From: an uncultured Alphaproteobacteria bacterium
GTDB taxonomy: Bacteria > Pseudomonadota > Alphaproteobacteria > RF32 > CAG-239
DNA length: 64,000 bases
NCBI GenBank assembly: GCA_944392205.1
Contig: CALXVV010000040.1
Span: forward strand, 32,971 to 96,970
Direction of reading: 5' to 3'
The translations under genes were made by a program, and so were the position numbers. Under the pieces are notes generated by a model that was given only the letters and a program-made list of their open reading frames with translations, made no database searches and had not been told where the DNA came from. Positions 54,775 through 55,033 of the stretch are shown one piece after another. How positions within the stretch are numbered: the first letter of the stretch is position 1; the number at the start of each line of letters is the position of its first letter.

Positions 54775-55033
54775 CAAACTTACTCCTGTAAGTTCGAATC
54801 TGGTCGGTTACAGGCCATTAAAAAACCCTCCACAAGGGAGGCGCCTGCTCTCTTTGCCTACGGCAACGGCAGGATTGGCTCGGGCCTCTCCTTGTTTAGC
54901 CCTCGCCTGCCTCGATTTCTTCGCTTGAGCTCACCGGCACACCCCCGTGTGCCTGAAATCTCGGCCCAAACTTACTCCTGTAAGTTCGAATCTGGTCGGA
55001 TACAGGCCATTAAAAAACCCTCCACAAGGGAGG
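54775..55033 (-). repeat. GC-rich tRNA-linked element, copy C (125-bp core 54842-54966) bracketed by 67-bp direct repeats
   Basis: 54775-54841 equals 54967-55033 except t/a at 54808/55000. The core is 78/125 G+C by my count and carries cgcttgagctcaccggcac (54922-54940), the reverse complement of the string in copy A. Confidence 0.65.

Follow-up and report, generated by a model that had tools for sequence, protein, structure and literature searches.

The tRNA-linked repeats (TLRs) of Escherichia coli were first described in 1978 by Egan and Landy (PMC8144298). In E. coli K-12, 22 TLRs are annotated at ten loci, with one to five copies each (Rudd 1999, in PMC8144298). The copies include the widely used rrnB T1-T2 terminator cassette, and neither function nor origin has been established for the E. 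coli TLRs (PMC8144298). RtT RNA is processed from the tyrT transcript, and a role in the stringent response that had been claimed for the tyrT TLR was later withdrawn (PMC8144298). The rRNA-linked TLRs rrA, rrB and rrF are located between the terminators T1 and T2 and are expressed through T1 read-through and processing (Stenum et al. 2021, PMC8144298). RNase E has been proposed to process them at the repeated 3' end, their RNAs bind Hfq and CsrA in vitro via GGA motifs, and the stated range of these members is the Enterobacteriales (PMC8144298). Here we describe units of related build in a stretch of 64,000 nucleotides from an uncultured alphaproteobacterium (contig CALXVV010000040.1, positions 32,971 to 96,970), referred to as the window. 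The region between dnaJ and the gene for tRNA-Arg(ACG) in this window probably consists of one and a third tandem units of a TLR resembling RtT. The assignment draws on the observed position, anatomy, homology and structural signals of the units, as well as on their variation in copy number and occupancy.

The TLRs of E. coli that are related to RtT are tandem units of about 170-190 bp that follow a tRNA gene in its own orientation and in variable copy number. A unit starts with an inverted T-arm copy, a turn, and a T-stem strand with TTCGA, and at its end repeats the final 19 nt of the upstream tRNA, from the T-loop on. For example, the tyrT-tyrV locus of E. coli K-12 (L142; L-numbers denote the related loci and genomes that were compared), annotated with rttR and tpr, has units some 178 nt long, of which one separates tyrT from tyrV and three follow tyrV. 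All of them terminate in the 19 nt AATCCTTCCCCCACCACCA of tRNA-Tyr, and the parts are ordered as in the alphaproteobacterial units. The RtT consensus comprises the inverted T-arm GGGAAGGATGAGAACCTTC, a turn, GAAGG-TTCGAGT and cGAGCGAAG..., followed by ...CGAGT-AAT-CCTTC-CCCCACCACCA. Matches to RtT are found in 4,741 of 5,426 complete E. coli genomes, with 1-14 places per positive genome. The open reading frame (ORF) ychS (b1228; NC_000913.3, 1286709-1286984) lies wholly inside the RtT units 3' of tyrV on the opposite strand and is probably not a real gene.

At the tRNA-Arg(ACG) locus of the window, a repeat search returned a 70-nt direct repeat with 97% identity (2 mismatches) and a spacing of 192 (Table 1). 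It encloses the 67-nt repeat that an earlier note on this DNA had reported, whose only mismatch (t/a) is at 54808/55000. Of the 125 nt that separate the repeats, 78 are G+C (62.4%, compared to 43.65% for the window overall), in agreement with the GC-rich insert described earlier against a background in the low 40s; the 100-nt profile reaches its maximum of 0.62 at this place. The hairpin ccctcc-acaa-gggagg is present in either repeat copy, also as described. The additional claim that only the copy proximal to the tRNA keeps its T-tail holds for the + strand and fails in tRNA sense, where a T run follows each of the two hairpins, which makes both terminator-like. The T1 hairpin is the centre of a long palindrome that extends from the CCA of tRNA-Arg(ACG) into an inverted copy of the tRNA 3' half; 18 nt across the terminator form a perfect palindrome, and the palindrome around the terminator loop is followed by a direct-inverted-direct series of tRNA 3' pieces. 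The T-arm of the tRNA is matched by a 21-nt arm of 86% complementarity in each repeat copy, and the 5' part of the proximal inverted copy is predicted to provide the closing helix of the unit. The hairpin at 54969-54986 consists of the complement of the 5' T-stem strand, a turn, and the 5' T-stem strand together with the first two bases of the T-loop. The core then occupies the centre of the would-be T-loop (GTAAG-TT / core / AAT-CCTGC), that is, it sits in the middle of the T-loop of a pseudo T-arm. Within the decayed tRNA-end copy downstream of the core, CGTTGCCGYAGGCA is borne by the element and is found in E. coli RtT as well. The helix formed by GCAGGC and GCCTGT shows C-G to U-G changes between strains. 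Finally, the T2 hairpin (54820-54841), which has a T run in tRNA sense only, lies in the distal repeat copy, together with another inverted copy of the T-arm (54785-54817) and the beginning of a further unit.

The direct repeat of 67-70 nt is therefore a terminator hairpin plus an inverted T-arm copy, common to successive units, and not a duplicated target, and what had been called the "125-bp insert" comprises the core together with the decayed tRNA-end copy. The flanks had been described correctly as direct repeats; their origin as copies of the 3' half of the host tRNA had not been recognised. We note that the T-stem of tRNA-Arg(ACG) itself contains two non-standard pairs (GTAAG with CCTGC; Rfam alignment). 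The 3' half of the tRNA is the same in L004, and the unusual GTAAG is retained by the inverted copy in the repeat.

Table 1. Features of the three occupied tRNA loci in the window (coordinates refer to the window; the term unit is used for a putative TLR; R1 and R2 are covariance models described in the text).
Feature	Position	Strand	Evidence
tRNA-Arg(ACG), host gene	55043..55119	-	ARAGORN; Rfam tRNA 64.9 bits; last 19 nt = AATCCTGCCGGGCGCGCCA
T1, bidirectional terminator hairpin A6-CCCTCC-ACAA-GGGAGG-GT6	55012..55040	.	inverted repeats, 18 nt, 100% complementary
tRNA-proximal copy of the 70-nt direct repeat	54964..55033	.	repeat search
proximal inverted, diverged copy of the tRNA-Arg 3' half, TGGCCTGTATCCGACCAGATTCGAACTTACAGG in tRNA sense	54977..55009	-	21 nt, 86% complementary to T-arm
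hairpin AACTTAC-AGGA-GTAAGTT	54969..54986	-	fold; columns 21-30 with 37-46 vary between loci, pairing kept
GC-rich core, with hairpin GGCACAC-GGGGG-TGTGCC and GGTGAGC	54877..54968	-	spanned by R1 match 54858-55003(-)
decayed direct copy of the tRNA 3' end, AATCCTGCCGTTGCCGTAGGCA	54855..54876	-	12/19 bases = tRNA-Arg
tail AAGAGAGCAGGCG	54842..54854	-	GCAGGC pairs with GCCTGT of the inverted copy (columns 3-8 with 164-169)
distal copy of the 70-nt repeat, adjoins dnaJ stop codon 54770-54772	54772..54841	.	repeat search
tRNA-Ser(GGA), host of second unit	19860..19950	+	ARAGORN, Rfam
unit 3' of tRNA-Ser	19991..20139	+	Rfam RtT model positions 1-130, 24.8 bits; R1 142 bits
parts of the tRNA-Ser unit	inverted T-arm copy 20002-20025; GAGGGTTCGA 20030-20039; core 20040-20120; AATCCCTCCCTAT 20121-20133	+	
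decayed second copy of the tRNA-Ser 3' flank	20121-20178	+	repeat search
tRNA-Val(GAC), host of third unit	24691..24766	-	ARAGORN, Rfam
unit 3' of tRNA-Val; core and flanks 24516-24655	24480..24690	-	R2 164 bits; compensatory pairs

ARAGORN and Rfam identify four tRNAs in the window, the three listed in Table 1 and tRNA-Arg(CCT) at 21207-21283(+). Three of the four are followed by a unit, which begins 34-55 nt past the tRNA and is oriented with it, as had been stated for all three copies; tRNA-Arg(CCT) is followed by a plain terminator only, without a unit. Like the described TLRs, which come as one to five units at each of multiple loci, the units are thus placed directly 3' of a tRNA in the same orientation, and the relatives carry one, two or at least two of them per locus. 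In tRNA sense, the order of parts is the tRNA, a terminator hairpin whose palindrome reaches the CCA, an inverted and diverged copy of the 3' half of the same tRNA, a turn of 3-6 nt, the 5' T-stem strand with TT or TTCGA, the structured core, the remainder of the T-loop (AAT), the 3' T-stem strand, an acceptor-like strand, and a second terminator hairpin. With the last 31 nt of each tRNA as query, the inverted copy was recovered at every occupied locus and at no unoccupied one. The length of the direct repeats varies by locus (31, 58, 70 and 90 nt).

At the tRNA-Ser locus, the T-arm has a 21-nt counterpart of 90% complementarity, GAGGGTTCGA occurs as a direct repeat, and a decayed 58-nt repeat begins at AATCCCTCCCTAT. 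The 12-mer GTGCCGGTGAGC occurs exactly twice in the window, at 54929-54940(-) and 20065-20076(+), which bears out the earlier observation that a string of the core recurs 3' of tRNA-Ser. The tRNA-Val unit is bracketed by 31-nt direct repeats (24480-24510 and 24653-24683, 100% identical, spacing 173) that carry the terminator hairpin. Its earlier classification as a diverged member holds for the architecture and for short common blocks, but not for the sequence as a whole, which is weakly related. The motif cgac(ta)ccag, listed earlier as shared, occupies non-equivalent positions in the three copies, and the core modules occur in partly permuted order between subtypes. Identity to the last 19 nt of the respective tRNA amounts to 12, 14 and 12 of 19 bases in the three copies of the window, with the identical part at the T-loop/T-stem end. 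Homologous copies in relatives reach 19/19 (tRNA-Ser in L133), 19/19 (tRNA-Arg(CCT) in L137) and 18/19 (L007). Judged from these sequences, the tRNA-end copy probably belongs to the alphaproteobacterial family and has decayed in the genome of the window.

The relation to RtT was assessed with covariance models in both directions. The Rfam model RF00391 (RtT RNA; gathering score 45 bits) scores 133-137 bits on E. coli units as positive control and aligns end to end with the unit 3' of tRNA-Ser (E-value 0.007 in 261 nt and 0.13 in 5 kb). Model R1 was built from four alphaproteobacterial copies of the tRNA-Ser type and model R2 from copies of the tRNA-Val type. R1 matches all copies of the tRNA-Arg(ACG) type with E-values between 1e-6 and 5e-9, with up to 37.7 bits in relatives and 29.9 bits (E about 1e-6) for the copy in the window. 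With filters off, R1 ranks the four RtT units of E. coli above everything else in 13 kb, at full length and on the correct strand (11-14 bits, E 0.003-0.03). In the argV-argY-argZ-argQ region of E. coli, the two best R1 matches fall on two short TLR-like spacers that end in the 3' end of tRNA-Arg. Beyond its own type, R2 scores best on a composite unit in L139 (13.9 bits, E 0.0065), followed by an E. coli RtT unit with 12.3 bits (E 0.02); R2 finds no further unit in the window, and R1 does not find the tRNA-Val unit.

Short blocks outside the tRNA-derived parts are also common to both groups, namely TTCGACT-C.AGCG, CGTTGCCGCAGGCAA and AAGCGC.CAGCGC.GAGT. In the block CGTTGCCGCAGGCAA, the L132 unit and E. 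coli RtT agree at 15/15 positions (z 6.4), and the block occurs with one change in the tRNA-Arg(ACG) unit of the window; AAGCGC-CAGCGCAGAGTAATCC (AAGCGC-CAGCGCAGAGTAATCCCTCCC) aligns to the end of the E. coli unit (z 8.4). Because of the R1 matches, the tRNA-Arg(ACG) and tRNA-Ser copies can be securely assigned as homologous to each other. All three unit types of the window are plausibly distant TLRs, a homology that is based on the reciprocal weak matches and the common blocks, and not on the RF00391 threshold. For the tRNA-Val copy, the assignment is plausible mainly by architecture and short blocks. We regard the units as members of the known TLR family and not as a new kind of element. They differ from the E. 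coli TLRs in several respects: similarity is below the Rfam threshold and the host is an uncultured alphaproteobacterium, not an enterobacterium; the units are bracketed by an intrinsic terminator hairpin that is palindromic with the tRNA end, whereas the tyrT spacer has none; the copies of the window have lost a large part of their identity to the 19-nt tRNA end; the G+C content of the cores exceeds that of the genome; and modules are partly permuted.

A second line of evidence is the occupancy of orthologous sites. DnaJ of the window has no exact match on record, and the nearest named homologues are from 'MAG: Alphaproteobacteria bacterium'. The tRNA-Arg(ACG) locus carries 1.3 units in the window, in L001 (DnaJ 99% identical) and in L003 (98%), 2.3 units in L004 (95%), and at least 2.3 units in L005 (93%, with an N gap in the assembly). 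In L007 (DnaJ 85%; 5015-5342), the architecture is kept, with 90-nt repeats bounded in the T-loop and an inverted T-arm copy. The core of 150 nt is AT-rich and unrelated, with a hairpin and A/T runs of its own, and might be a different cargo or a replaced core. At tRNA-Val, one unit is found in the window, two in the near-identical strain L129, and one each in L132 and L136 (M20 peptidase 81% and 80% identical); the site is empty in L131 and L133 (83% and 80%). For tRNA-Arg(CCT), examples were supplied by seven loci from a metagenome scan with the M20 peptidase. The site is empty in the window, L129, L133 and L135, holds a core of the tRNA-Ser type in L137, L139 and L131, and a core of the tRNA-Arg(ACG) type in L132 and L140. 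Empty sites of both tRNAs are without the 67-70-nt repeat and without the inverted T-arm copy, and end in a different simple terminator. The patchy occupancy and the distribution of core types therefore imply several gains or losses, with different subtypes at one tRNA. The family turns over between strains, and the earlier intuition of a dynamic family is borne out by presence and absence at orthologous tRNAs and by variation in copy number and subtype. An empty orthologous dnaJ/tRNA-Arg site, proposed as a check, was not found, as close relatives all carry the array and the more distant L007 and L008 have lost synteny. A search of relatives for further copies had likewise been proposed, and copies are present there at tRNA-Arg(ACG), tRNA-Val and tRNA-Arg(CCT). 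The known family to which they belong had gone unrecognised.

Three of the compared loci deserve separate mention. L139 harbors a composite unit of 220 nt at tRNA-Arg(CCT) (3396-3616), which combines a core of the tRNA-Ser type with a module that resembles the tRNA-Val-type block GCGAGGAAGAGCGACCGAAGG. The make-up of this unit suggests that the subtypes arose from a longer ancestor through deletion or permutation. In L131 (6138-6326), T-stem and acceptor of tRNA-Arg(CCT) differ from all others and the adjoining inverted copy agrees with this new tRNA; in its direct T-stem strand the unit retains the standard GTGGG, and the contig ends within the unit. In L132, a gene for a DinB-type polymerase (IMS domain) and small ORFs are located between the tRNA-Val unit and a racemase gene (1749-2915). 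Nothing is found at this place in the other genomes, and the segment looks like a separate insertion beside the same tRNA.

Patchy occupancy at four tRNA genes with clean empty sites also invites an explanation by mobility. The units could be mobile DNA of a non-autonomous kind, which would target tRNA genes at the T-loop or 3' end and depend for its movement on a trans-acting enzyme whose gene lies elsewhere. In a single strand, the inverted T-arm copy would pair with the direct pieces of T-stem and T-loop and thereby restore a double-stranded imitation of the tRNA target, with the core branching off to the side; repeated integration would give rise to arrays. Recombination sites that act as folded single strands are known from integron attC and the attP of phage CTX. 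The likeness of the units to these sites is one of form only (a fold-back inverted copy and tandem arrays at one site), and they lack a core sequence of the attC type. Homing would account for the tRNA-Arg(ACG)-type core (L132, L140) and the tRNA-Ser-type core (L137, L139, L131) at one and the same tRNA-Arg(CCT), for flanks that match each local tRNA, for a junction that is always at the centre of the T-loop, and for a permuted module order, as expected for passage through circles or arrays. We nevertheless consider it unlikely. No integrase, transposase, HUH or reverse-transcriptase domain was detected in the 56 ORFs of the window that were scanned, the remaining long ORFs being DnaJ and housekeeping genes (as annotated in related loci); the earlier statement that integrase and transposase are absent from the window is confirmed. 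A blastn search of the locus against plasmids and phages gave no match, viral contigs scanned with the core patterns of the tRNA-Val and tRNA-Ser types gave none, and among the matches listed for the loose pattern GTGCCGGTGAGCN{0,30}TCAAGCG in genome contigs there are only chance ones in GC-rich genomes (L010 onwards). Furthermore, the array ends are variable within the unit and not at the native tRNA end, as opposed to the prediction of simple integration, no excised or circular form was seen, and the known TLR family is regarded as chromosomal RNA genes. The two units of L004 are only 93% alike, hence their amplification is not recent.

A broader version holds that TLRs in general are a self-propagating element, or the descendants of one, which would seek out the T-loop of tRNA genes and rebuild its flanks from each target, perhaps via a folded single-stranded or RNA intermediate and a further enzyme. 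It would be in keeping with the patchy occupancy, the different subtypes at one tRNA, the constant T-loop junction and the conservation of core modules from Alpha- to Gammaproteobacteria, and we rate it as rather improbable. If true, it would explain why every TLR ends in the 3' end of that tRNA or rRNA which it follows, an oddity of 45 years' standing.

Other kinds of mobile or repetitive element were considered as well. The earlier note had offered, as one of two options, a small integrative element resembling a cis-mobilizable element (CIME) or a miniature inverted-repeat transposable element (MITE), which duplicates its attachment site or target. The units do share with such elements and with islands that integrate at tRNA genes the tRNA 3' site, direct repeats with tRNA 3' sequence, and presence or absence between genomes. 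However, this option lacks support in the form given: the repeat is absent from empty sites, the flanks of 31, 58, 70 and 90 nt, which consist of tRNA 3' sequence with a terminator, are no target duplication of fixed length, there are no terminal inverted repeats borne by the element, the sole inverted repeats being copies of the local tRNA, and no recombinase is found nearby. The content is a conserved structured core and not island remnants. A tRNA, tmRNA or tRNA-like gene is dismissed since ARAGORN and the Rfam tRNA and tmRNA models are negative in the units, and a tRNA-like domain since the inverted copy and the 3' copy lack complementarity in their acceptor parts. Permuted tmRNA, tRNA-Sec and a tRNA with a T-loop intron yielded nothing in ARAGORN and Rfam, and a group II intron fragment, a retron, hammerhead and other ribozymes are without Rfam support. 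The junctions do not fit targets of the IS91 or IS200/IS605 type (GTTC, CTTG, TTAC), and the "spacers" of one array, about 93% alike, do not fit a CRISPR-like array. A retroelement with a long terminal repeat and primer-binding site was dropped as the direct tRNA-end copy runs on into genomic flank; for the same reason, the copy was not made from mature tRNA.

The second option of the earlier note, a family of GC-rich structured RNAs cotranscribed with tRNAs, appears better supported, namely by compensatory changes, the better fold in tRNA sense and the match to published TLRs. The tRNA-Arg(ACG) unit has a predicted folding energy of -69.7 kcal/mol in tRNA sense (z -4.0), compared to -60.0 kcal/mol on the other strand (z -3.2). 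In tRNA sense, the consensus folds are rich in G-U pairs and in changes from C-G to U-G, which turn into mismatches if read on the other strand. A conserved hairpin that precedes GGTGAGC has a GGAA or GGGA loop (GNRA) in several copies and shows A-U/G-C swaps. A covariance model with a test for compensatory changes had been suggested as a check. In 13 copies aligned to R1, an alignment fitted to that model, 89% of cells are paired, compared to 23-38% with slid partners; both sides have changed in seven pairs, and 0/500 shuffles reach the covariation score. In the tRNA-Val type, four pairs have changed on both sides with pairing kept. Core covariation, GNRA loops, G-U pairs in tRNA sense only and one terminator per unit fit an RNA that would be cotranscribed with the tRNA, as for E. 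coli TLRs. A scan for sigma-70 promoters detected none on the tRNA-sense strand of the unit, which is weak evidence because the scan missed the tRNA's own promoter as well.

The same data bear on two further explanations. According to the first, the units are functionless by-products of replication errors, produced by template switching at the terminator hairpin and the T-arm, followed by unequal crossing-over and decay. The long palindrome on the terminator loop with its direct-inverted-direct series of tRNA 3' pieces, the decayed tRNA-end copies in the window and the differing copy number among strains would be in line with such an origin. It leaves unexplained that a common non-tRNA core is found at different tRNAs and shares blocks with E. 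coli, and is at odds with the compensatory changes and GNRA loops in the core hairpins and with units that are far more conserved than synonymous sites in diverged strains. We therefore hold it to be very unlikely. Between the window and L004/L005, for example, units are 90-94% identical, compared to 65-69% at third codon positions of dnaJ. According to the second, the element acts on the + strand within the 3' untranslated region of dnaJ, where the antisense of the unit would serve as a stabilising or regulatory structure. The distal hairpin has no T tail on the + strand, so transcripts of dnaJ should cross the core up to the shared terminator, and as no terminator belonging to dnaJ alone precedes 55012-55040, the unit would be part of the dnaJ mRNA in antisense; the + strand also folds well (z -3.2). 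Nevertheless, the same family occurs 3' of tRNA-Ser, tRNA-Val and tRNA-Arg(CCT) next to unrelated neighbors and always oriented with the tRNA, and the G-U pairs and GNRA loops are found in tRNA sense only. To a role within the dnaJ transcript we give hardly any credence.

Several observations weigh against the assignment to the TLRs as tRNA-cotranscribed RNAs. The best RF00391 score (24.8 bits) is below the gathering score, and in Rfam searches the tRNA-Arg(ACG) region gave no RtT match at E-values up to 10 and the tRNA-Val region none at E-values up to 1. The hallmark identity to 18-19 nt of the tRNA end is decayed in all three copies of the window. Covariation in the T-stem hairpin, formed by inverted and direct strands, could stem from copying of the local tRNA at the DNA level and not from selection on RNA. 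Conservation is mixed: in the closest strains the unit is 94-96% identical, compared to more than 99% for the spacer upstream of the tRNA, and constraint on the unit is therefore not uniform. Finally, the tRNA-linked members of E. coli are themselves without demonstrated function.

If the units are TLRs, their expression would most likely resemble that in E. coli. RNA polymerase that starts at the tRNA promoter would read through the leaky first terminator and stop at the following one. Processing would be signalled by the tRNA-end copy and by its helix with the inverted copy, and the released product may be a structured RNA of about 150-170 nt whose level tracks transcription of the tRNA. For read-through transcription, processing and tRNA-coupled expression alike, the E. 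coli TLRs serve as the model. In the DNA, recombination between repeats would lengthen or shorten the arrays, and the family also turns over between tRNA loci. Compared by their published description, RrA, RrB and RrF (E. coli rrnA, rrnB and rrnD) are alike in that the unit lies between two terminators 3' of a stable-RNA gene and repeats the 3' end of the upstream gene at its own 3' end; they differ in being linked to 5S rRNA, not to tRNA. The 3'ETS-leuZ and similar RNAs are likewise small RNAs; they derive from the primary transcript of a tRNA, of which they represent the 3' external part, and their level is coupled to transcription of the tRNA. In contrast to the units, 3'ETS-leuZ is unrepeated, has no tRNA-end copy, is unrelated in sequence and acts as a small-RNA sponge.

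Judged against the range given in PMC8144298, the alphaproteobacterial host lineage and the comparative picture of empty and filled sites, subtype replacement and a T-loop-centred junction appear to be new. Relatives in an uncultured alphaproteobacterial lineage suggest that the TLR family is far wider than the Rfam model detects. Empty and filled tRNA sites, one versus two units, and intact versus decayed tRNA-end copies provide natural contrasts; together with the precisely stated anatomy, they allow comparative genomics to test how TLRs arose, how they spread and how they are constrained. In genome annotation, a comparison with TLRs should come before any GC-rich repeat 3' of a tRNA gene is called a scar of an integrative element.

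Two neighboring features of the window are recorded here. Between dnaK and dnaJ, an ORF of 1194 aa (49872-53456(-)) encodes PEPEPT-type repeats and contains a 24-nt tandem repeat (52846-52922), without a Pfam domain. The ORF is missing from L003 and L007, in which dnaJ follows dnaK immediately, and has a length of 1413 aa in L001 and 1200 aa in L005. The region 65-12039(+) consists of a type IVb (Tcp/Bfp-like) pilus cluster with TcpQ, a secretin, a PilO-like protein, two T2SSE ATPases, T2SSF, and a pilin of the PilS/bundlin type.

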